Shown here in pieces: positions 1-48,965 of a stretch of DNA of 64,000 nucleotides. Position 1 is the stretch's first letter; every line of letters begins with the position of its first letter. The notes under the pieces are model-generated. The model saw only the letters and a program-made list of their open reading frames with translations. It was not told the DNA's origin and searched no databases. A program made the position numbers and the translations under genes. Source of the DNA: Candidatus Omnitrophota bacterium (lineage in GTDB: Bacteria > Omnitrophota > Gorgyraeia > Duberdicusellales > 4484-171); NCBI GenBank assembly GCA_021735655.1, contig JAIPGM010000002.1:224001-288000 (forward strand), in the 5' to 3' direction.

Positions 1-1284
1 ATCTTCTTAGTCAGCCCAGGTCGTTTAGTCGCACTTTCATTCTGGGAAAAAAGCTTCATTGACAACTCTTGTTCTGCTCGCAAGCAAAAACTTGGAGAAG
101 TTGTTAAGAGTAGCGGAAATATAATTAAACTAGTCAATTATCAACCCGGAGGATGGCAACTATTGTTAAATGATAAGCCATTTATGGTCAAAGCAATAAC
201 TTACGGACCTACTAGAGTTGGAGAATCTCCTGATGATGGTAGTATGCAGAACTGGACTACTCAGGATTTAAATGAAAATGGAATTATTGACTCAGGTTTT
301 GAAACTTGGGTTGATAAAAACCAAAATAATCTTCAAGATGAAGGGGAAAAAGTGGTTGGCGATTTTGCTCTTCTTAAGCAAATGGGGGCTAACTCGATTA
401 GGCTCTATCATCAGCCTCTAGAATTAAATAAAAAAATTCTTCGACAAATGTATGAAAAATATGGTATATATGTACTACTGGGTGATTTCCTTGGTAAATA
501 CGCCTTAGGTAGTGGTGCAGATTGGGACCCAGGAACCGATTATGATAATCCGGACCAAAAGCAGAAAATGCTTGAAAGTATTGAGAAAATGGTCCGAGAG
601 TTTAAGGATGAACCCTACGTTCTGATGTGGCTTTTAGGTAACGAAAACGTTTATGGTCTAGGATGTAATGCTGACAAGAAGCCAGAAAGCTTCTTTAAAT
701 TTGCTAATGAGGCAGCCCGCCTCATTAAGTCTTTAGATCCAAAAAAGCGTCCAGTAGCCATTGTTTCAGGGGATATTCTGTATTTAGATATCTTTGCTAA
801 AAATTGCCCTGACATTGATATTTTTGGTACCAATGCTTATCGGGGAAAATATGGGTTTTTAGATATTTGGGATGAAGTTAGCCGAGTTGCGAATAAAGCA
901 ACGATGATAACCGAGTATGGTACTTCTTCTTATGCCAAGGGTTACTCTTTGGAGGAAGCTGAACAATACCAAGCCGGCTATCATCGAGCTTGTTGGGAAG
1001 ATATAATCTGTAACTCTGCTGGTTTCGGAGCTGGAAATGCCGTTGGCGGAATAGCTTTCGAATGGATAGACGAGTGGTGGAAGGCGTATAAGCCTGCTTA
1101 CCACGATCGTAAAGGTCTTTTTAGCGGGCCGTTTCTTGATGGATATATGCATGAAGAATGGCTTGGTGTCTCTGGTCAGGGCGATGGAAGTAAATCACCT
1201 TATTTGCGCCATTTAAAAAAGTCTTATTTTACGTACAAAGAACTTTGGAATCAACCTTGCGAAGAAAGGGTAAGTAAAAATTAG
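1..1284 (+). CDS. Clan GH-A (beta/alpha)8 glycoside hydrolase, 5-prime partial (frame open to window edge)
   Basis: There is no in-frame stop between pos 1 and the TTG at 163, and the upstream translation (..KLVNYQPGGWQLLLNDKPFMVKAITYGP) aligns to the N-region of the paralog at 2646. It has an LLGNENVYG (acid/base NE) motif, an MITEYG (nucleophile E) motif, and FEWIDEWWK. Confidence 0.5.
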   Translation: MFLVSPGRLVALSFWEKSFIDNSCSARKQKLGEVVKSSGNIIKLVNYQPGGWQLLLNDKPFMVKAITYGPTRVGESPDDGSMQNWTTQDLNENGIIDSGFETWVDKNQNNLQDEGEKVVGDFALLKQMGANSIRLYHQPLELNKKILRQMYEKYGIYVLLGDFLGKYALGSGADWDPGTDYDNPDQKQKMLESIEKMVREFKDEPYVLMWLLGNENVYGLGCNADKKPESFFKFANEAARLIKSLDPKKRPVAIVSGDILYLDIFAKNCPDIDIFGTNAYRGKYGFLDIWDEVSRVANKATMITEYGTSSYAKGYSLEEAEQYQAGYHRACWEDIICNSAGFGAGNAVGGIAFEWIDEWWKAYKPAYHDRKGLFSGPFLDGYMHEEWLGVSGQGDGSKSPYLRHLKKSYFTYKELWNQPCEERVSKN

Positions 1285-2645: not shown

Positions 2646-4028
2646 ATGTTTAAAAACTTTAAATTTACTTGGGCTAATTTTAAAATAGACAGAAAACGTG
2701 CTCAACGTCTTTGTGTAGCATTCATTTTTTTAATGCTGATTGGAATATTTGGCTATCTTTTAGCTTATACCCGTTTTTTAACCCTTCAATCTAAAACGAT
2801 AAGCCTTATTTCTCTGAACAAAAAATTAACAGCTAAACTTAAAAATTGTCGGGAGCGACTTGAATTATGTCAAGATCGCTTTGTAAAAAAAGTTGAAATA
2901 ATCCCTAATTCTTGCGGTGGTTACAACTTTTATGTTAAAGGAAAACCTTTTCTAGTAAAAGGCGTAGGCTATAATCCTACGCCAATAGGTAAAGGTTACG
3001 ACTATGAACTTTTCAGCGATGAGACTAAACCTTGGCTCGTTGACGGTAAACTTATGAAAGAGGCCGGCATAAACTGTGTCCGTATTTATTCAACTGGTAG
3101 TGATTTAGAAAAAGTTAAAGAATTTATCAGTGATATGTATGAAAAATTTGGTATTTATACTTTAGTTAGCGATTGGCTAGGATTGTGGGATTATCCACGA
3201 GCAAACTATGCCGATCAAAAATTTCGTGAACGAACTAAGAAAAGAATTTTAGGAATCGTTGAAGCCTTAAAAAATGAAGAAGGCCTATTAATGTGGATCC
3301 TTGGTAATGAAAATAACTATACCTTTTCCGGGCGTATTGGATTTTGGACTTCAAATGAAATCGAAAAGCTTCCTGAAGCTTGTGATAAGCAAAATAAACG
3401 CGCTGAGATTTACTACAGTTTTGTTAATGACCTCACTTTAGCGATTAAAAAAATAGACCCGTTGCATCCAATAGCTTTAGGCAATGGTGAGGCTAACTTT
3501 CTTCAAATTGCCTCTCAACAGGCCAAAGATGTAGATCTTCTAGCAATAATTATCTATCGTGGTAAAAGTTTCGGTAATTTATTCAATAGCGTTCGTCACT
3601 CTTTCGATAAACCGATTATGCTTTCAGAATTTGGCTCCGATTCTTATGATGCTTATCGTGAGAAGGAAGACCAGGATATTCAATCTGAATTTTTAATTTC
3701 GCAGTGGAAAGATTTGTATGCTAATACCACAATCAGCGGTAACTGCGAAGCAAATGCGATCGGTGGGTCTCTTTTTGAATGGAATGATGAGTGGTGGAAG
3801 CATAATGAGGGTTACAGCGATGGCTGGAGCATCCACGATACCGAAGCTGGCTGGTCTCACGGAGCCTATTTTTTTGATATTCGTGCCAAAAATAATTTGA
3901 ATATGAATGAAGAATGGTTTGGTATCGTTAGCTTAAGTAAAGACAAGGAAAATGGAATAAATAAAAGGAATCCTAAAAAGTCTTACTACGATCTTCGTAC
4001 TTTTTTCGGCCAACCTTATACCGATTAA
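2646..4028 (+). CDS. Clan GH-A glycoside hydrolase paralog with N-terminal TM anchor and coiled-coil stretch
   Basis: It carries LLMWILGNENNY (NE acid/base), MLSEFGSDSY (nucleophile) and FEWNDEWWKHNEGY, matching the ORF at 1..1284. The N-terminus has a hydrophobic segment (LCVAFIFLMLIGIFGYLLAY). Confidence 0.5.
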   Translation: MFKNFKFTWANFKIDRKRAQRLCVAFIFLMLIGIFGYLLAYTRFLTLQSKTISLISLNKKLTAKLKNCRERLELCQDRFVKKVEIIPNSCGGYNFYVKGKPFLVKGVGYNPTPIGKGYDYELFSDETKPWLVDGKLMKEAGINCVRIYSTGSDLEKVKEFISDMYEKFGIYTLVSDWLGLWDYPRANYADQKFRERTKKRILGIVEALKNEEGLLMWILGNENNYTFSGRIGFWTSNEIEKLPEACDKQNKRAEIYYSFVNDLTLAIKKIDPLHPIALGNGEANFLQIASQQAKDVDLLAIIIYRGKSFGNLFNSVRHSFDKPIMLSEFGSDSYDAYREKEDQDIQSEFLISQWKDLYANTTISGNCEANAIGGSLFEWNDEWWKHNEGYSDGWSIHDTEAGWSHGAYFFDIRAKNNLNMNEEWFGIVSLSKDKENGINKRNPKKSYYDLRTFFGQPYTD

Positions 4029-35119: not shown

Positions 35120-36358
35120 TTAGGGCATCTTACGAATAGCTTCGACCCGTTTCAATACCGGCGGATGACTATAATCCAAAAATACCTTTAATCGATGCGG
35201 GCTTAAATTAGAAAGATTGTTTACAGTGAGCTTTTTAAGCGCCGAGATAAAGGCCTCCGGATTTTGATAGGTCCTTACCGCATAGCGATCAGCTTCATAT
35301 TCATGTTTTCGCGAAAGCAAATTACCGAATATTGAAAAAATAAAACTAATTGGTGTATAAAGGAAGCTAAAGAATATAAGCCCAGCGTAAACTGATATTT
35401 CATCCATTCTAAAAGCATTGAATAGCCCAGGATTTTTTATAAAAAATGAAAGCAGGTAAAACATCAGACCTTTAGTTAATGCTGAGAGTAAAAGACGTTT
35501 TATAATATGTTTCTTTTTATAGTGGCCAACTTCATGTGCTAAAACAGAAACAATTTCTTCAGTAGTGTGTTTTTGAATTAAAGTGTCAAATAAAGCAATC
35601 CGACGAGATTTGCCTAAACCAGTAAAAAAAGCGTTAGACTTACTTGACCGACGCGACCCATCAATTTTAAAAATACCCTTTATCTTGAACTTTTGCGAAT
35701 TAGCATAATCGCTAACCGCCTTTTTAAGCTCCCCATCTTCTAAGGGGGTAAATTTGTTAAAAAGCGGTAAAATTAACACCGGAGCAATAAAAATAAAAAA
35801 AGTACTTAAGAGAACCGTAGCCAACCAACACCAAAGCCAAGCTCCCTGATCGCTAAACTCGACAAAAAGACGTACAATTAAATAGAAAGCCGGACCGGCA
35901 ATAATTACCAACAATATCCAGTTTTTAATTAGATCAGTAATAAAAGTTTTTACGGTAGTTTTATTGAATCCATACTTCTCTTCAATAACAAAGGTCTGAT
36001 AAATAGAAAAAGGTATCTCAATAATTTGAAGTCCGAAAACAATAATTCCGGCAAAAATTAAACCGCTAAACTCAATATTTGAGCTCAAATCTCGGGAGAT
36101 TCGGTCAACTAAATTGAATCCTCCGCTTAGAATAAAAATGATAACAACTGTCGTAAAGACGGTTTTTTGAATAAGACTAAAGTAAGTATTTTCTTTAAGG
36201 TATTTTTGCGAACGACTATAGTCCTCAGGATTATAATAACCTTCAAATTCTGCAGGTAGACTAAAACCAACTGAGGAAATATTTAACATCTCTACGGTCA
36301 CCCGCAAGACATACTCGCCGATTAAAATAGCTAAAATAATAACTAAATAAGGATTCAT
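35120..36358 (-). CDS. M48 family (Ste24/HtpX-like) integral membrane zinc metalloprotease
   Basis: Multiple TM helices are present, together with the HEVGHYKKKH (HExxH) motif and a downstream Glu-containing segment. Confidence 0.75.
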   Translation of the reverse strand: MNPYLVIILAILIGEYVLRVTVEMLNISSVGFSLPAEFEGYYNPEDYSRSQKYLKENTYFSLIQKTVFTTVVIIFILSGGFNLVDRISRDLSSNIEFSGLIFAGIIVFGLQIIEIPFSIYQTFVIEEKYGFNKTTVKTFITDLIKNWILLVIIAGPAFYLIVRLFVEFSDQGAWLWCWLATVLLSTFFIFIAPVLILPLFNKFTPLEDGELKKAVSDYANSQKFKIKGIFKIDGSRRSSKSNAFFTGLGKSRRIALFDTLIQKHTTEEIVSVLAHEVGHYKKKHIIKRLLLSALTKGLMFYLLSFFIKNPGLFNAFRMDEISVYAGLIFFSFLYTPISFIFSIFGNLLSRKHEYEADRYAVRTYQNPEAFISALKKLTVNNLSNLSPHRLKVFLDYSHPPVLKRVEAIRKMP

Positions 36359-36396
36359 AAAACTATTTATTTTTTGAAGTTGAAACTGACAAGATT

Positions 36397-36590
36397 AAAA
36401 AAACCGACAAGGGCTTCACGGTGTGTCTACCGGCAACTCAGCCACCATCATAGTCTAAGGCTCATACTCGCAAAGTTGGGGAGCGTTGCGTTTTAGGAGA
36501 GCTTGCGAATCATCTCGCCCAAGAACTATCTTAGGTCTGTCAGTTTTGCGCCCCTTACTTTCGTAAGGTTTGCCCTTATCGGCACCTTAA
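36397..36590 (-). ncRNA. Candidate c-di-GMP-I (GEMM) riboswitch with U7-terminated expression platform, upstream of M48 protease gene
   Basis: The minus-strand RNA reads GAUAAGGGCAAACCUUACGAAAGUAAGGGGCGCAAAACUGACAGACCUAAGAUAG. For comparison, the Vc2-type aptamer reads CAGGGCAAACCAUUCGAAAGAGUGGGACGCAAAGCC..GGCCUAAACC. The 3-prime segment GAAGCCCUUGUCGG plus U7 is complementary to the aptamer's 5-prime strand CCGAUAAGGGC. Confidence 0.45.
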
Positions 36591-36649
36591 TTATACAATA
36601 TTTTTGGTGCTAATTTCAACCCAATATTCAGAATATATATACAATATCG

Positions 36650-37708
36650 TTACTTTGTCAGATGAACAGTCTGAGTAGGAAAAGCAAATTCAATCTTTTT
36701 CTTCTCAAATTCACCCTTAATGCCCAGGTTTATCTCTTGTTGAATATCCATATATTTATTATAATCACTGCTAAGCACGTAATAGACTACCTCAAAAATA
36801 AGATTAAACTCACCATAAGAAAAGAAATGAGCTCGATCCAAAGTGGCACCCTCAACACCTTCAATTATCTCCCCAATAATCTTAGGTATTTCTTTTAACT
36901 TAGAAAGAGATGTGTCATAAGTAGTACCCAGCTGAAACATCACTCTTCGTTTCTGCATTCGCTTATAATTACGTAAGCGAGAATCCGTCAAATCAGAGTT
37001 AGAAAAAACTAGCTGTTCGCCGCCTAAACTGCGAATTCGAGTAGTTTTAATTCCAATGTTTTCTACTGTTCCCAAAAGATCGCCAACAATAACAAAATCG
37101 CCAACTTCAAAGGGACGGTCAAAAATAATTGAAAAATAACTAAATAAATCCTTTAGAACTGCTTGGGCAGCCAAAGCAATGGCTACACCACCAATACCCA
37201 ACCCGGCAATAACCGTTGATATTTTAAAACCTAAGTTGTCTAAATAGAAAATAATAGCCAGGGCCCAAATAATAAACTTAGTAACCCTCAAAACACCCTC
37301 TAGACTATTCTTTAAAGTTTCACTGCGCCTAGACTTTCGCCAATAAACATCTAAACTATAGGTAATTATACGAATCAATAAACGGACCGTAAAAAAAGTT
37401 ATTAGCGCCATCACTAGAACGCCTAGGCCGCGATTAACCTGTTCACTTAAGGTCAAGGTTTTAAGACTTAAGTAGAAGGCCGCAAGGTAAAAAATCGGAA
37501 TAGCTATTTTCTCAATAATTTCAGCTAAGAAATCATCAATACTAGTAAGCGTCTTTGCAGCTAAACTTCTGAGTTTTTTTAAAATGATGAGCTCGAATAT
37601 CTTTATTACAACACAAGCTAACAGGAATGCACCAATATGAACAATATAATCCTGTAATGAGTTGCCAAGTATAATGTACTCTGAAAATTCTTGCATAGTT
37701 ACCCCCAA
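36650..37708 (-). CDS. Mechanosensitive ion channel family protein (MscS-like)
   Basis: N-terminal TM helices precede an MscS beta-domain region, FEVGDFVIVGDLLGTVENIGIKTTRIRSLGGEQLVFSNSDL. Confidence 0.8.
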   Translation of the reverse strand: MGVTMQEFSEYIILGNSLQDYIVHIGAFLLACVVIKIFELIILKKLRSLAAKTLTSIDDFLAEIIEKIAIPIFYLAAFYLSLKTLTLSEQVNRGLGVLVMALITFFTVRLLIRIITYSLDVYWRKSRRSETLKNSLEGVLRVTKFIIWALAIIFYLDNLGFKISTVIAGLGIGGVAIALAAQAVLKDLFSYFSIIFDRPFEVGDFVIVGDLLGTVENIGIKTTRIRSLGGEQLVFSNSDLTDSRLRNYKRMQKRRVMFQLGTTYDTSLSKLKEIPKIIGEIIEGVEGATLDRAHFFSYGEFNLIFEVVYYVLSSDYNKYMDIQQEINLGIKGEFEKKKIEFAFPTQTVHLTK

Positions 37709-37727: not shown

Positions 37728-38921
37728 TTAATTTTCCGAAATCGAATACCGAACTTTAGATTTTTGTATTTCCAAAGTGCTAGCCAGTTCGGTTTCAGTT
37801 ACAAACCCGAGTTCTTTTAAAATTTCTCCAAGCATAATTCCTCTTTTCCAATGAATTAAAAGAGCTTCATCGAGCTGATTTTGAGAAATTGCCTTTCGTT
37901 CAATTAATATCTGACCTAAAGGTTTATCATTGGTTGTCTTTCGATGATAGATTTCCGGTGTTGCGTCTTTATTTGTTTTGGTGTCACGACGATCAACCAT
38001 AAATTTGCTCTCAGGGATAGTTTTGAGGTAACGCTTTATTTCGGTAACTTTTTCATTAAGCTGAATCATATTTTCGATACCAGAAGTGTACTCTCGATTG
38101 ACTACGGCAATCGAAATTGTCATCAAAGGTGTATTTGTTAATTTACGAGTTCGATCGCGATTAACCACAAAACCTTGGTTGCGATCTATTTCAGAGTAAT
38201 GAAAAGGAATAATCGTATCGAAACTTTTAATAAAATTGTGGCATATTTGTGCGTATTTATCCATGGTGCTGATAAAAACAAAATCATCTCCTCCAATATG
38301 ACCGATAAAATCATCAGAATTTCCGAATTTTTTTACCGCGTCAATTAACAAGTGAGTTGTATGAAGAATTACTCCGTCACCTTTACGGTAGCCATAGACA
38401 TCATTGAAAGATTTAAAATTATCAATATCTAAATAAGCAAATGAAAATGGTTTTCCAGTTTTAAACTTTTCATTTAAGGCATCCTCAAATATTTTAGCAC
38501 CAGGAAGACCAGTTAAGGAACTCGCATAAATACTGTGTTGGGCGCGTCTTGCAGCCATTTCAATTCGAATACGTAAATCAAGCGGGTCTGGTGGTTTTAT
38601 CAAATAATCATCGACTCCTTGCTTTAGACTTAATAATTGAGCGCGTAATTGCCGCTTATTGATTAAAGTTATGACCGGAGTAAAAGCAGTGGCAAAATTT
38701 TCTTTTAAAAGCCGACACATGGCTAATTGTTCTTTACGGGCTGATTGAATATCAATGACTATGACATCAGGGGAAATTCTTTTTATTTTTTCGATATCTT
38801 GCGGTTGAGTAAATTCACGTAGGAAAACTTCGTATCCCCAACCGTCAAAACAAAAGCGCAGAACCTCTTTTAATTGACTATCCGAAGAGATAATTAAAAT
38901 TTTATGTATAGTATCAATCAT
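37728..38921 (-). CDS. Response-regulator receiver, GGDEF-like (GGDDF) domain, and C-terminal T2SSE_N/MshEN-like domain
   Basis: The N-terminus has REC features, and the GGDEF-like site reads IGHIGGDDFVFI. The C-terminus GQILIERKAISQNQLDEALLIHWKRGIMLGEILKELGFVTETELASTLEIQ has the GspE-N/MshEN pattern. Confidence 0.6.
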   Translation of the reverse strand: MIDTIHKILIISSDSQLKEVLRFCFDGWGYEVFLREFTQPQDIEKIKRISPDVIVIDIQSARKEQLAMCRLLKENFATAFTPVITLINKRQLRAQLLSLKQGVDDYLIKPPDPLDLRIRIEMAARRAQHSIYASSLTGLPGAKIFEDALNEKFKTGKPFSFAYLDIDNFKSFNDVYGYRKGDGVILHTTHLLIDAVKKFGNSDDFIGHIGGDDFVFISTMDKYAQICHNFIKSFDTIIPFHYSEIDRNQGFVVNRDRTRKLTNTPLMTISIAVVNREYTSGIENMIQLNEKVTEIKRYLKTIPESKFMVDRRDTKTNKDATPEIYHRKTTNDKPLGQILIERKAISQNQLDEALLIHWKRGIMLGEILKELGFVTETELASTLEIQKSKVRYSISEN

Positions 38922-38929
38922 TTAAACTA

Positions 38930-41900
38930 TTATACCACTTTCTTCTGTTCCTCAATTATTTTTTGGGCTATTTCCTTTGGTACCTGGGTGTACTTTTTAA
39001 AATGCATTGAGCAACTTGCCCGGCCACTAGATAAAGACCTAAGATTGGTTACGTAACCAAACATTTCCGAAAGTGGAGCCTCAGCCGAAATTAGCTTTTG
39101 GTTACCTTTTGAATCCATACCTAAAATTTTCCCCCGACGCGCACAAAGATAACCAACAATACCACTAGTATGCTCTTCTGGAGTAAGTACTTCCAAGCTC
39201 ATGCAAGGCTCAAGAAGAACCGGACTCGCTTTTAAAAAAGCGTTTTTAAAGCAAGTTCTTGCAGCAATTTTAAACGCTAACTCTGAAGAATCAACTTCAT
39301 GGTATGAACCATCAACGAGCTTTACCTTAACATCGACCACCGGATAACCGGCATAAGAACCTTTTTTCATTGCTTCAATAATACCTTTCTCAACTGCCGG
39401 TATATAGTTTTTAGGTATTGCTCCACCTTTAATGCTATCTTTAAATTCAAAACCAGCAGCTTCTTCATTAGGAGAAAGCTCAATCGCTACGTGGCCGTAT
39501 TGGCCTCTGCCTCCGCTTTGCTTAGCATGTTTATACTCTTCGCTAGTAGACTGAAGGATTGTTTCTTTATAGGCAACTTTAGGCTGACCGGCCTGCGCTG
39601 AAACCTTAAATTCTTCCTTCAAACGTTCAACGATTATTTCAAGATGTAATTCTCCCATACCAGAAAGAATTGTTTCAGAGGTTTCCTCGTCGGTATGAGC
39701 GTTAAAAGTGGGGTCTTCTTCTGCTAGTTTAGCTAAACCCTTGGCCATCCTATCCTGATCGGAACGACTCTCCGGTTTTATGCTGATTGAAACGACTGGC
39801 TCAGAAAATTCAATTGACTCAAGTAATATTGGATTTTGAATGTCAGAGAGTGTATCGCCGGTTAAAGTGGAACTGAGACCGACAATTGCCGCAATATCAC
39901 CGGCAAACACTGCGTCAACATTTTCTCGTTGGTTAGCATGCATTCGAACAATTCTCCCGATACGCTCTTTTTTATTTTTAGTTGCATTTAAAACATAAGT
40001 TCCGGCCCTTAAGCATCCCGAATAGATTCGAGCATAGATCAATTTACCTACATGCTGGTCAGCTTGGACCTTAAAAGCAAGCGCTGAAAAAAATTCATCA
40101 TCTTGAGGCTTACGTTCCAAGCTTTTTTCTTTATCATCGGGGTCAGAACCAATAACTGGCGGAATTTCAGCCGGAGAAGGTAGATAGGCAACAACTGCAT
40201 CAAGCAAGTCTTGAACACCCTTATTTTTTAATGCTGACCCGCAAAAAACCGGAACAATCTTATTTGAAACTGTAGCTTTGCGCAAAGCCTCAGTCAGATC
40301 GTCTTTGCTGATTGACTCCTCTGACTGTAAGTATTTTTCCATTAATTTACCATCATAAGAGGCTACCCGATCAACCAAACTATGGCGGTATCTTTGAGCG
40401 ATTTCTTTATAGCTTTCATGAATATCTTCCGACCTAATATCTTTGCCTAAGGATTCGTCATTATAAAGATGCATTTTCATATTAATAAGATCAATTATGC
40501 CTTTAAAGTCACCTTCCTTACCGATCGGTATCTGTAAGGCAACTGGTTTAGCCCCAATAGTATTTTCGATCTCTTCTAAAACCTTAAAAAAATCAGCCCC
40601 GACCCGATCCATTTTATTTATAAAGGCTATCTTCGGTACATGATATTTATCCGATTGGCGCCATACGGTTTCAGTTTGAGACTCTACTCCTCCCACCGCA
40701 CAAAATACAGCAACTGCCCCATCTAGGACCCTTAACGATCTTTCAACTTCAGCGGTAAAATCAACGTGGCCGGGGGTATCAATAATAGTAATTTGGCAAT
40801 CTTTCCAACTACAAGTGGTTGCAGCTGAAGTTATAGTTATACCTCTTTCCTGTTCTTGTTTCATCCAATCCATCTGAGCTGCCCCGTCATGAACTTCGCC
40901 GATTTTGTGCGACCGGCCGGTATAGAAAAGAACTCTTTCAGTAAGAGTAGTTTTCCCAGCATCAATATGGGCCATAATCCCAATATTACGGATCTTGCCC
41001 AGTTCTATTTTTCTCTCCGGCAGTGGCTCCTCTACTTTTTTTACTGCTTCAGGCTTAGGCTCGGCTTGTATTTCTGGTTCTTGAGCCGATAGCTCCGGAG
41101 TCACTTCTTCACTTGCGGTTTCAGGTTGCCCTTGGGTCAAATCTTTAGTTTCACCTTCCTGCCCTTGGATTAAAGATTCGTCTTCCTTTAGCGATTCTTT
41201 ATCTGAAGGTAACTCTTCAAATTCCTTAGTTTCTGAAATAGGTTCACTTGGCTGCGCCTGAACTAACTCATTCTCAAGATTGGAAGATTCTTTTTGAGAA
41301 TCACCGTCCTCAATTAAAAGAATATCTGCTAACTCATCGTCCTTAATAACGCCGCTTCGTTTAATCTCGCGTAATTTATTAAGAATACGAATCCGCTCCT
41401 GATCAATTTTTTCGATATCTTTACCTTTTAGCTCCAACTCCTTAGATTTAATCTCTAACTCATTTTTTAATTCTTCACTTTGTTCTTCTAAAAGAGAGTA
41501 CTCTTCTTTAGATACCCATTCGCTTTGACGTTGTTTTTCTTTCATTTGAGCAACTTCAGCAGCATGTGCGACAGTTTCTTTAGATAGCTGGTGCATTCTT
41601 TGAGTCTGATCTTTTAGCTCACTTTCCAAAGAAATAATCTTATCTTTCAATTGATTGATATTGACTTCACGAATTTTGATTACTTCTTCAGCTTGATCAA
41701 GTTCTTTTTTAAACTGCACACTCCGGGAAAACTCTTTCTCTAAATCCTTTTCCTTAGTAATCAATTTAACTCTCAAAGCCTCATAGGGACCTTTTCCTTT
41801 TTTCAAAGTAAGCTGCTGACTATTAAGCCATTTTTTATTGCGGTTAATTTCCTCGCCCAATTCTTTAGCCTTGAGGCTAAGCTTTTGATGCTCATCTTGC

Positions 41901-42139
41901 AAGCTGAGATACTCAGCCTGAGTTTTTGTTAAGGCGACAATTTCATTTTTTAATTTTGTTAGTTCCCTTTTTGAAGATTTAAGGTTTTCTGACAAGGCAG
42001 AAATTTTTTGTTGTTGCAAGTCAGGCTTAAGGCCAAACTTTGTACCCAGAGTACCTTTTAAAACTGAATCATCTTCGTTGTTAACTAAATACAGTACTAG
42101 GGCAATCGATACTCCAATTACAACAAAAATTAAAGTCAT
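38930..42139 (-). CDS. Elongation factor G paralog with ~370-aa N-terminal extension (TM helix, coiled coil, acidic linker)
   Basis: Residues ~375-1069 form a complete EF-G: [15 protein letters not shown] (G1), DTPGHVDF (G3, catalytic His retained), NKMD (G4), a G-prime insert, and domains II-V. The N-terminus [19 protein letters not shown] is hydrophobic. Residues ~40-260 are heptad-rich and K/E-rich, and residues 270-370 form an E/P/Q-rich linker. No ATG/GTG/TTG lies near the junction. Confidence 0.8.
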
Positions 42140-46230: not shown

Positions 46231-48201
46231 CTAAAAGCTTACTTTACAACCGGCAAAGAAGTTTCTTTCTGGAGAAGGATAAAGTCCTCGCGTGGTACCG
46301 GTAAGATTAGTTGCAGCGTACTCACTGTAAAGTTCGTTAAATAAATTATTAACACCGGCAAAAAGCTCTAACTTTTTTCCGGTATAACTTAATTTTATAT
46401 TAGTTGTGTTGTAACTTTTTAACTTAGGGCTGATATTATTAAGATCATTAATTAAATAAACTTTATCTCGATAAAGATAATCAGCAAAAAATGAAAAGCG
46501 TTCAAAAAAATCATATTTTACCGAAGCTGTAAGCATAGCCTTAGGAACGAAAGGAACTTCCTTTCCAGCGTAAACACCGCCACGGAATTTCGCATCGATA
46601 AAGCGATAGCCGAGAGTAAACTTTGTATTGTCAAATGGGGTAAGGGTTGTAGTGAGATTCGCACCTTGACGACGAATTTTACTATAATTTTCGTTAGCGA
46701 ACGTCCCTGGGTTGTAGTATATTTCGTTATTAACATTCATTTGAAAATAATCCAAAGATGTGGTTAAAAAGTCAGTTAAACGCATATTGGCCCCCAAACT
46801 TATAGTTTTAGAACGTTGTGGTTTTAAATTTGTATTAATTGCTGCAGCCGGCCAAGTAACTAAGTATTCATCGGTCTTACCGACCCTCAAACCTCGCGAA
46901 AAATTAAGATAAATATTACTTTCGTTATCGATTTTATAGTTAAGTCCAGTTTCATACAAGCCTTCTCGAAAATTCAATCCATCATCAGTGCTTGTAGAAC
47001 CAAAATAATCAAAAGTAAACTTTTCTTTTTGCACCCTAGCCCCTAAATGCCCAGCAAGTTTTTCATTAAAGCTAATTTCATCCTGTAAAAACCAAGCTAG
47101 GCTCTGTCGATCAATGTCAGTAGCCGCGCTTGAGGTATCAGCTGATAAATCCGAACTATAAAATTCAAATCCGGCAATTAGCTCTTGTTGAATTCCTCTA
47201 GTATCAAAAGACAATAATAGTTGTGGCCGCGCTTGAAAATTAGTTATATGTTTGTCAGTAGACATGCTATAAGAAAGTAAATCCTCCAACTCATTTCGGT
47301 TACGATAAAATAAATCAACTGAAGCAATCAGCTCAGGTGAAAACTCGTTTTTAATAGTTAAGCCTAAAGTATTATCCTCTCGTTGATAGTTATTTAAAGG
47401 AGTTGTTGAGTCACGACGTGAAGTTCCAGCTAACCGTTCAGCTTCGGTTATATCATCTGGCAATCCATAGATATATTCGTGATGAGTCAAGTCAGCACTT
47501 ATCTCTAACTGTTCGGTAGGCCTAGAGTTTAGTTCTATTGAGCTGTATTTTGAGCGGTAATGACTATTTTGACGATAACCACTTGTTGAATGGTACTCAG
47601 AAAATGTGCGAAACGATAAAAGGTCTTCTCCACCTGAGGCTGAAATAGACTCTTTGGTCGAGCGGTAACTTCCGGCTTCAAAGTTAACTTCAACTGAAAG
47701 ATCCTTAGCTTGAGGATCTTTTGAAATAATATTAACTATTCCTCCGGCAGCACCCTCTCCATACAGGACAACTCCGCCACCCCGGATTACTTCTATTCGT
47801 TCAACATTTTTTAAGGGCAACTCAGTCCAGTTAACTCCGCTCATATCGATTTCATTAATTTTTCGACCATTCACTAAAACCAGCATGTTTGATGCAGCAT
47901 TATCACCAAAACCCATCATATCAACAGTTGTCTTAACGTTAGTTCCGTAATAATCGCTGACGTGTAACGACGGAACATTTCTTAAGAAATCAATTACTGT
48001 GCTTGATCCGCTAGCCTTGATATGTTTCTCGGTATATACTTTGGTCGCATAAGGAGTTTCAGAAATTGTTGTTTCTTCTACTCCGGCATAAGGAGTTACT
48101 ACTATTTGCTCTAAATCTATTTGTCCTTGCGCCAACAAAGGACTTAATGATCCAAATTGAATAGTCAAAAATAATATTAAAAATACAAAACACCTTTTCA
48201 T
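46231..48201 (-). CDS. TonB-dependent outer-membrane receptor (BtuB-like)
   Basis: A signal peptide MKRCFVFLILFLTIQFG is followed by plug and barrel domains, and the protein ends with a terminal Phe. The start was corrected to the ATG at 48199-48201, preceded by the RBS aaaggaggggg. The track start at 48267 lies inside the riboswitch terminator. Confidence 0.8.
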   Translation of the reverse strand: MKRCFVFLILFLTIQFGSLSPLLAQGQIDLEQIVVTPYAGVEETTISETPYATKVYTEKHIKASGSSTVIDFLRNVPSLHVSDYYGTNVKTTVDMMGFGDNAASNMLVLVNGRKINEIDMSGVNWTELPLKNVERIEVIRGGGVVLYGEGAAGGIVNIISKDPQAKDLSVEVNFEAGSYRSTKESISASGGEDLLSFRTFSEYHSTSGYRQNSHYRSKYSSIELNSRPTEQLEISADLTHHEYIYGLPDDITEAERLAGTSRRDSTTPLNNYQREDNTLGLTIKNEFSPELIASVDLFYRNRNELEDLLSYSMSTDKHITNFQARPQLLLSFDTRGIQQELIAGFEFYSSDLSADTSSAATDIDRQSLAWFLQDEISFNEKLAGHLGARVQKEKFTFDYFGSTSTDDGLNFREGLYETGLNYKIDNESNIYLNFSRGLRVGKTDEYLVTWPAAAINTNLKPQRSKTISLGANMRLTDFLTTSLDYFQMNVNNEIYYNPGTFANENYSKIRRQGANLTTTLTPFDNTKFTLGYRFIDAKFRGGVYAGKEVPFVPKAMLTASVKYDFFERFSFFADYLYRDKVYLINDLNNISPKLKSYNTTNIKLSYTGKKLELFAGVNNLFNELYSEYAATNLTGTTRGLYPSPERNFFAGCKVSF

Positions 48202-48239
48202 ACTACCCCCTCCTTTAAAACTAATCTTAAAATAAAAAA

Positions 48240-48545
48240 ACCCTATACCTTCTGGTATAGGGTGCACCCTGATTTACTTGGCCCTAAAATAAAAAAATTC
48301 AGGTAATGTTTCCACGCAAAACCTAAACTTTGCTTCTTACGGCAGGTCTTCTGACTTCCCTACATCTTTTAGCTACCTTCCCACCTGCATTTTAAAACAG
48401 ATAGTGGTTTAAATCGCTAAAAGGGCCCTAAAATTATCTCTAGGGGTCGGGATCACAGCACCGGGAGTGTCTCCGATTCTCACGGAGTTCCCTATTAAGC
48501 TCCTTTTGAGCACCGTAAAATTAGCTACTTTTATACAAAGAACAT
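48240..48545 (-). promoter_or_regulatory. Cobalamin (B12) riboswitch with intrinsic-terminator expression platform
   Basis: The minus-strand RNA reads UUAAUAGGGAACUCCGUGAGAAUCGGAGACACUCCCGGUGCUGUGAUCCC ... GGUGGGAAGG ... AGUCAGAAGACCUGCC, where the last element is the B12 box (plus 48341-48356). The terminator CCCUAUACC-AGAA-GGUAUAGGG plus U7 follows (plus 48232-48263). Confidence 0.85.
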
Positions 48546-48892: not shown

Positions 48893-48965
48893 TGCCCCCA
48901 TCCCGACTCGAACGGGAATTTCAGCCTTAGGAGGGCCGCGCTCTATCCTGTTGAGCTATAGGGGC
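48893..48965 (-). tRNA. tRNA-Arg (anticodon CCT)
   Basis: The minus-strand cloverleaf reads acceptor gccccta/tgggggc, D-arm gctcaacaggatagagc, anticodon stem cggcc/ggctg with loop ctCCTaa, and T-arm cccg-ttcgagt-cggg. Confidence 0.85.

Follow-up and report, generated by a model that had tools for sequence, protein, structure and literature searches.

A predicted class I c-di-GMP riboswitch ahead of an M48 membrane protease gene in Omnitrophota, with a proposed aptamer-enclosing terminator

The question raised by this locus is whether the intergenic gap ahead of a membrane protease gene of Candidatus Omnitrophota encodes a c-di-GMP-sensing RNA and, if so, how this RNA would control the gene behind it. 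The DNA analyzed was a stretch of 64,000 nucleotides (GCA_021735655.1, JAIPGM010000002.1, positions 224,001 to 288,000 of the forward strand), referred to here as the window. A sequence-only reading had placed a candidate c-di-GMP-I (GEMM) riboswitch in the gap between an mscS gene and an M48 protease gene (Table 1). The minus-strand letters quoted in that reading (...GCCGAUAAGGGCAAACCUUACGAAAGUAAGGGGCGCAAAACUGACAGACCUAAG...) are exact, and the blocks follow one another as GCCGAUAAGGGCAAACC, a UUAC-GAAA-GUAA hairpin, GGGGCGCAAAAC, and GACCUAAG, with GAAGCCCUUGUCGG and then seven U residues further on. Its statement that the gap is richer in GC than its surroundings agrees with our counts, which gave 48% in 36400-36599 compared to 29 to 44% (mostly 30 to 38%) in the other 200-nt segments between 35000 and 38000. 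The M48 protein, which is identical to an NCBI entry named M48 family metallopeptidase from a Candidatus Omnitrophica MAG, matches its two Pfam families with E values of 2e-47 and 7e-37. Its ATG at 36358 is on the same strand as the aptamer, which places the aptamer in a 5' regulatory position. Beyond the M48 gene, the same strand carries genes for a Y-family DNA polymerase (impB/mucB/samB family; DinB-type), LemA, and DUF3137, and these may be cotranscribed with M48.

Table 1. Features of the mscS-M48 locus, in the order in which the minus strand is read (window numbering)
Feature	Positions	Strand	Description and basis
MscS-type channel ORF	36650-37708	-	Other side of the gap from the M48 ORF
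Intergenic gap	36359-36649		291 nt, between the MscS ORF and the M48 ORF
Sigma-70-type promoter	36590-36619	-	TTGAAA 36619-36614, 18-nt spacer, TATAAT 36595-36590
c-di-GMP-I aptamer (predicted)	36429-36584	-	Full-length RF01051 match
5' arm	36572-36583	-	GCCGAUAAGGGC; Rfam alignment mapped to Vc2 numbering (PMC6140456)
Hairpin 1	36548-36573	-	GC / AAA / CCUUAC-GAAA-GUAAGG / GGC / GC; Rfam alignment
Hairpin 2	36435-36545	-	Receptor half CCUAAG 36535-36530; 3' strand ...CUAUGAUGGUGGCUGAGUU; Rfam alignment
Lineage-specific extension of hairpin 2	36454-36524	-	71 nt; cmscan insertion, distal to the receptor
Conserved apical-loop motif	36475-36494	-	AAAACGCAACGCUCCCCAAC; core A-rich...CUCCCC, kept in relatives (alignments)
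C36433 and closing-helix 3' strand	36428-36433	-	C36433 (Vc2 C92 equivalent), then CGGUA 36432-36428; Rfam alignment
Small alternative hairpin	36419-36432	-	CGGU-AGACAC-ACCG; consensus, centroid, and MFE folds
3' arm	36403-36414	-	GCCCUUGUCGGU; complement of the 5' arm, 36583-36572
U7 tract	36397-36403	-	Directly abuts the long-range helix; sequence
M48 ORF	35120-36358	-	412-aa Ste24-like membrane metalloprotease; Peptidase_M48_N and Peptidase_M48

The sequence-only reading had proposed a scan with the RF01051 covariance model and a comparison with the c-di-GMP-II (RF01786) and 6S RNA models. In a scan of the whole window with Rfam 15, the RF01051 (c-di-GMP-I/GEMM-I) match scored 60.8 bits, above the gathering score of 35, and covered model positions 1 to 87 of 87 (E = 1.9e-09). 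A local permissive scan of 36300-36700 that admitted E values up to 10 returned RF01051 at 1.2e-11 and listed neither RF01786 nor 6S RNA nor any other plausible family; the only further matches were to two sub-threshold snoRNA models, both outside the aptamer. With this full-model match and no competing family, the element is predicted, almost certainly correctly, to be a class I c-di-GMP riboswitch (GEMM-I, RF01051). The earlier riboswitch call thus stands, although it overlooked a 71-nt insertion in the second hairpin and left the direction of switching open. The span that it gave, 36397-36590, is that of the aptamer plus the expression platform, since the Rfam match alone is shorter (Table 1).

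The aptamer was compared with Vc2 and with its counterparts in six Omnitrophota relatives (L085, L086, L088, L091, L092, and L337), which together with the window make up the clade considered here (n = 7). The 5' arm consists of the 5' strand of the closing helix (equivalents of Vc2 G11 to G14), the junction, G36574 (Vc2 G20), and G36573 and C36572, the first two paired bases of hairpin 1; this arm is invariant in all seven sequences. Hairpin 1, with 2 plus 6 bp, a 3-nt internal loop, and a GAAA tetraloop at 36562-36559, fits the definition of the family (PMC1950547). An AAA linker at 36547-36545 (GC-AAA-ACUG) connects it to hairpin 2, and this linker is virtually invariant among GEMM RNAs (PMC1950547). 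The CCUAAG of hairpin 2 is the exact 5' half of the 11-nt tetraloop receptor (PMC1950547); the 3' half is GAUGG, the canonical sequence being UAUGG, which L337 has, and docking of the tetraloop is predicted. The closing helix comprises 5 bp between UGCCG (36584-36580) and CGGUA, beside the C92 equivalent. Four of its five pairs are invariant in the relatives, and the outermost pair is present in three of six sequences.

The identity of the ligand was judged from the pocket. In Vc2, G20 and C92 recognize the two guanines of c-di-GMP, with C92 pairing with one of them (PMC6140456). The equivalents G36574 and C36433 are invariant in the relatives and indicate c-di-GMP rather than cGAMP, and we infer that the element binds c-di-GMP. 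A GEMM-Ib-type aptamer with 3',3'-cGAMP as its ligand would have an identical fold, and RF01051 lumps the two specificities. However, cGAMP-sensing members are distinguished by an A at the G20 equivalent, whereas this position is G here and in six of six relatives, and wild-type Vc2, which has G20, binds cGAMP at approximately 10 µM and c-di-GMP at picomolar concentrations (PMC6140456). The neighborhood, moreover, encodes GGDEF, HD_5/HD, and PilZ proteins. We therefore regard cGAMP as a very improbable ligand.

The sequence-only reading had also described the window as rich in c-di-GMP proteins, and a Pfam census of its 63 ORFs bears this out, with three HD_5/HD proteins (Pfam families that take in HD-GYP-type domains), three PilZ proteins, and two GGDEF proteins. 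The same census recorded another Peptidase_M48 protein and three radical-SAM proteins. The REC-GGDEF protein encoded two genes upstream of the riboswitch (37728-38921, minus strand) has GGDDF in place of GG(D/E)EF and its match to the Pfam GGDEF model is limited to the first half (positions 5 to 90 of 161). Its C terminus, with two LGxxL...L...L..Q-like repeats, was considered as a candidate for MshEN, a c-di-GMP-binding domain, but Pfam did not confirm this, with no MshEN match at E values up to 1. The adjacent ORF at 38930-42139 (minus strand) encodes a 1069-aa protein with the full EF-G domain set at residues 382 to 1060 and no Pfam match in its N-terminal ~380 aa. Elsewhere in the window, a cobalamin riboswitch (RF00174, 48324-48532, minus strand; 81.7 bits against a gathering score of 31.5) lies upstream of a 678-aa ORF (46231-48267, minus strand), with a tRNA gene (48893-48965, minus strand) just 5' of it.

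The sigma-70-type promoter matches the consensus at 11 of 12 positions. Since it ends 6 nt before the aptamer, the RNA begins essentially at the closing helix; the predicted transcript start (approximately 36586-36583) is the first base of this helix or at most 2 nt upstream. The same promoter is kept in the aligned relatives, including L337. The best explanation of this arrangement is that the riboswitch forms the extreme 5' end of a transcript that has its own promoter and encodes the Ste24-like M48 protease.

RF01051 matches of 57.8 to 63.2 bits were found in the six relatives. The gene order EF-G-like/REC-GGDEF/MscS/gap/M48/Y-family (DinB-type) polymerase is kept in relatives whose M48 proteins are 64 to 72% identical, with a homologous match within the gap in L085, L086, L088, L091, and L092, and the match of L337 lies in a different upstream context. 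In a six-sequence alignment, pairing in the aptamer helices is 100%, the outermost pair of the closing helix excepted, and five aptamer pairs are changed on both sides. These include three of the six inner pairs of hairpin 1 and two pairs in the base helices of hairpin 2, which are 100% paired; in the consensus fold, the distal aptamer helix also shows compensatory changes. The covariation score of 0.264 was reached by none of 500 shuffles and by no slid control. These data also bear on the reading that no riboswitch is present and that the match arose by chance, belongs to a 6S-like RNA, or marks nothing more than the terminator of mscS, the gene upstream. Read-through from mscS might in principle be stopped by the U tract together with the paired termini, but the helices covary across the relatives, a conserved promoter separates mscS from the element, and the local scan gave RF01051 an E value of 1.2e-11 with no 6S or other family at E values up to 10. 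The probability that the element is not a riboswitch is accordingly negligible.

The distribution of the element is narrow. No Rfam match was present at the 20 best M48 orthologue loci of GTDB species representatives (at most 62% identity), and the first regex screen of orthologue loci had returned only the locus itself. Within the group of related loci, the riboswitch is absent from L214, L216, L338, and L339. The closest relative by M48 (L082-L084, 72% identity) has an mscS-M48 gap of just 18 nt (2982-3001), and the syntenic L338 (M48 identity, 63%) has one of just 39 nt (1461-1501), with neither a promoter nor a riboswitch in either gap. These short gaps without the element indicate that it was gained or lost within the clade. 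A general association between the riboswitch and M48 orthologues was therefore rejected, as the 20 best GTDB loci are empty and the riboswitch accompanies M48 only in a narrow clade, where its occurrence is itself patchy. The riboswitch is a clade-restricted, evolutionarily labile addition. A metagenome scan with the 17-mer TGCCGATAAGGGCAAAC recovered 120 stretches, mostly by chance; a loose GEMM filter kept nine, comprising one chance match and eight GEMM-I RNAs, seven of which are not related to this locus.

The insertion in hairpin 2 folds as a proximal helix, an internal loop, and an apical helix (UUCGCAAG / CUUUGCGAG) that closes a loop of approximately 27 nt. The cmscan alignment of L337 likewise has a 71-nt insertion at this model position; in the other five relatives the matches are equally long (155 to 161 nt) and the extension is alignable. 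It folds as an elongated hairpin in every member of the clade, and both its proximal and apical helices show compensatory changes in the seven-sequence alignment. The apical loop is more conserved in sequence than the stems. Inspection of the seven sequences gave no consistently complementary or covarying partner for the CUCCCC of this loop; the candidates considered were the GUUGC at the aptamer 3' end, the run of G residues within the 5' half of the extension, the G-rich strand on the 3' side of hairpin 1, the linker, and the start-codon region. Long insertions occur at the same place in the unrelated GEMM-I RNAs L115 and L161 and fit the "variable-length stems of P2" described for the family (PMC1950547).

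Downstream of the aptamer, the sequence-only reading had noted complementarity between the segment before the U7 tract and the 5' strand of the aptamer. This complementarity proved to extend over 12 contiguous pairs between the 5' and 3' arms, two of them G.U, and to be conserved in all seven members of the clade. When the 90 nt downstream was shuffled, a run of at least 11 pairs arose in 46 of 20,000 trials. The 12-bp duplex has an energy of approximately -21 kcal/mol in the window and -21 to -23 kcal/mol overall. It is present in both the minimum free energy (MFE) fold of the leader and the RNAalifold consensus fold; the leader MFE with this helix is -62.4 kcal/mol, compared to -44.3 kcal/mol with the aptamer enforced, in nearest-neighbor energies that leave out tertiary and ligand contributions. 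The helix is 100% paired in seven of seven sequences, and one-sided changes keep or strengthen its pairing, namely G to A opposite U in L092 and L337 (U.G to U-A) and U to C opposite G (G.U to G-C). With the 5' arm invariant, no pair in the clade alignment is changed on both sides, and the case for the long-range helix is thus one of conservation and complementarity, not of covariation. When this helix occupies the 5' arm, the 3' strand of the closing helix may, as the folds suggest, find its other partner in the small alternative hairpin, for which 79% of cells are paired across the relatives and no covariation was seen. Expansions occur in the linker that joins the closing helix to the 3' arm, namely an extra hairpin (GAUCCC-AUCA-GGGAUC) in L091 at 2918-2950 and a second copy of UGCCGGU in L092 at 2916-2950.

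Directly after this helix comes the U7 tract in the window and a U5 to U7 or interrupted U tract in the relatives. A terminator scan of 36250-36750 for compact hairpins (loop of 3 to 8 nt followed by a U tract) returned no sites, and the local hairpin of the 3' arm in the window amounts to only -1.4 kcal/mol; the only strong helix that ends at U7 is the long-range one. As in oligonucleotide-induced termination, release at a U tract can be set off by a duplex whose upstream strand is distant or even separate. Our preferred reading, which we hold to be somewhat more probable than all others together, is that the element acts as a transcriptional ON switch through this aptamer-enclosing terminator helix. 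Without c-di-GMP, the 3' arm, emerging just before U7, would pair with the 5' arm, and the resulting helix, which encloses the whole aptamer and abuts U7, would terminate transcription. With c-di-GMP, the 5' arm would be locked in the pocket and the closing helix, the long-range helix would be prevented, and the polymerase would read through into the protease gene. Four closing-helix bases, the G20 equivalent, and the base of hairpin 1 all lie in the 5' arm, so that the terminator helix and the ligand pocket should be mutually exclusive, and because the 3' arm alone forms a negligible hairpin in the window, read-through would be expected with the ligand. The arms of the proposed terminator stem are approximately 155 nt apart, which is atypical, and no description of such a widely spaced stem was found in the literature on the GEMM-I family.

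The same helix would bring the transcript's 5' end together with the sequence immediately ahead of the start codon, and control by the riboswitch could accordingly be exerted at translation initiation or mRNA stability instead of termination. A Shine-Dalgarno sequence is not visible in any member of the clade, and the helix starts 2 to 3 nt from the predicted transcript start. The ATG of L085 and L086 lies within approximately 10 nt of the 3' arm, after a broken U tract, so that the helix would fall inside the ribosome footprint; with the ATG directly after the arm, translational occlusion may contribute in these two relatives. However, an uninterrupted run of U5 to U7 abuts the helix in the window, L088, L091, L092, and L337, and the ATG lies a further ~38 nt (window) to more than 130 nt (L337) downstream, which is the signature of termination and not of occlusion. 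Control at translation or stability is therefore an unlikely mode for the element as a whole.

The self-complementarity of the 3' arm raises the further reading that the riboswitch is an OFF switch, in which the ligand would free the 3' arm to form a small local terminator hairpin (GGCC-CUUGUC-GGCC). Hairpins of this kind reach -5.7 to -9.0 kcal/mol in L085, L086, and L088 and are followed by a U tract; the same 5-bp hairpin occurs in L091, and L337 has GAGCC-CUUAUC-GGCUC followed by U7. In the window, however, the local hairpin has only the -1.4 kcal/mol given above, and the consensus terminator scan was empty. The long-range helix formed without the ligand would, moreover, stop at the same U tract, leaving no ligand-free read-through either, and since the 5' arm is self-complementary (GCC...GGC), the 3' arm that matches it is so as a by-product. 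An OFF switch thus appears quite improbable. With regard to the proposed ON switch, the 5-bp G+C hairpin formed by the 3' arm on its own ahead of the U tract (-9 kcal/mol in L088 and L091; also present in L337) could terminate transcription in these three relatives even with the ligand.

Some GEMM-I RNAs that share the 5' arm and look unrelated also have its complement next to a U tract, as in L204 (GCCUUUAUCGGC followed by U7), L131, and, less cleanly, L161. L204 (approximately 740-925, minus strand) and L131 (350-560, plus strand) have normal-sized GEMM-I aptamers in which the 3' arm and U tract are immediately followed by a canonical terminator hairpin (..CCCAAC..GUUGGGAUUUUUU). These double terminators suggest either RNAs that always terminate or a two-step platform. 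L181 (3997-4096) and L201 carry an RNA that shares the 5' 17-mer; it is best described by the c-di-GMP-I-GGC variant model (RF03167, 66.8 bits) and has a conventional compact terminator in place of the long-range arm. A test for a 5'/3' long-range terminator as a general trait of GEMM-I RNAs was negative in viral contigs, where 0 of 19 candidates had one even with the run threshold lowered to 7; the positives were recovered by the method.

Taken by itself, the element is an ordinary member of a well-known family with a few lineage-specific features, namely, the 71-nt extension with its conserved loop, the proposed aptamer-enclosing terminator, and the host phylum and target gene. It is detectable by any Rfam-based annotation and leaves knowledge of the riboswitch class unchanged. 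What it adds is the placement of a working-looking c-di-GMP-sensing RNA in the uncultured phylum Omnitrophota and a link from c-di-GMP to a Ste24-like membrane protease, a hint that envelope quality control may be among the outputs of this signal. A bolder and rather doubtful suggestion is that the Omnitrophota clade represents a distinct architectural subtype of GEMM-I, combining a terminator of 5' strand and distal 3' arm that encloses the aptamer with the CUCCCC loop as a second functional site. This loop could dock a protein or another RNA or pair alternatively with the G-rich strand on the 3' side of hairpin 1; if so, it would add a second input or tune the switch.

The literature search found no paper on a c-di-GMP riboswitch in Omnitrophota (full-text search) and none that pairs "c-di-GMP riboswitch" with M48, in agreement with the earlier remark that M48 is not a classic GEMM target. 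The closest known counterpart of the aptamer is Vc2 of Vibrio cholerae, a type 1 GEMM-I RNA with a GAAA tetraloop and receptor, to which the element is similar in its full-length fit to the covariance model, the 2-plus-6-bp hairpin 1 with its 3-nt internal loop and GAAA, the AAA linker, CCUAAG, G20, C92, the short closing helix, and its position in the 5' untranslated region of a membrane-protein gene. It differs from Vc2 in the 71-nt extension of hairpin 2 beyond the receptor with its conserved apical loop, in GAUGG for UAUGG, in its host, and in the M48 protease as its target. Clostridioides difficile Cd1 and Bacillus Bc1 also belong to this aptamer class and are coupled to intrinsic terminators. 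In Cd1, an OFF switch, the aptamer can exist alongside the terminator (PMC9262584), and for Bc1 a long platform containing two typical compact terminator sequences is described (PMC11218506). In contrast to both, the Omnitrophota element has no compact terminator. The mutually exclusive aptamer and terminator folds proposed here are similar to those of the Geobacter metallireducens pilM cGAMP riboswitch and of the terminator class of Weinberg et al. (2007), ON-type GEMM-I RNAs in which the ligand should prevent termination and raise expression, and in which the 5' arm of the terminator comes from the 3' side of the aptamer (hairpin 2, or the A and T strands) (PMC9262584, PMC1950547). In the Omnitrophota element, by contrast, the proposed terminator arm is the extreme 5' strand of the aptamer, which would make it a compact and testable platform that uses the 5' strand in place of the 3' strand.
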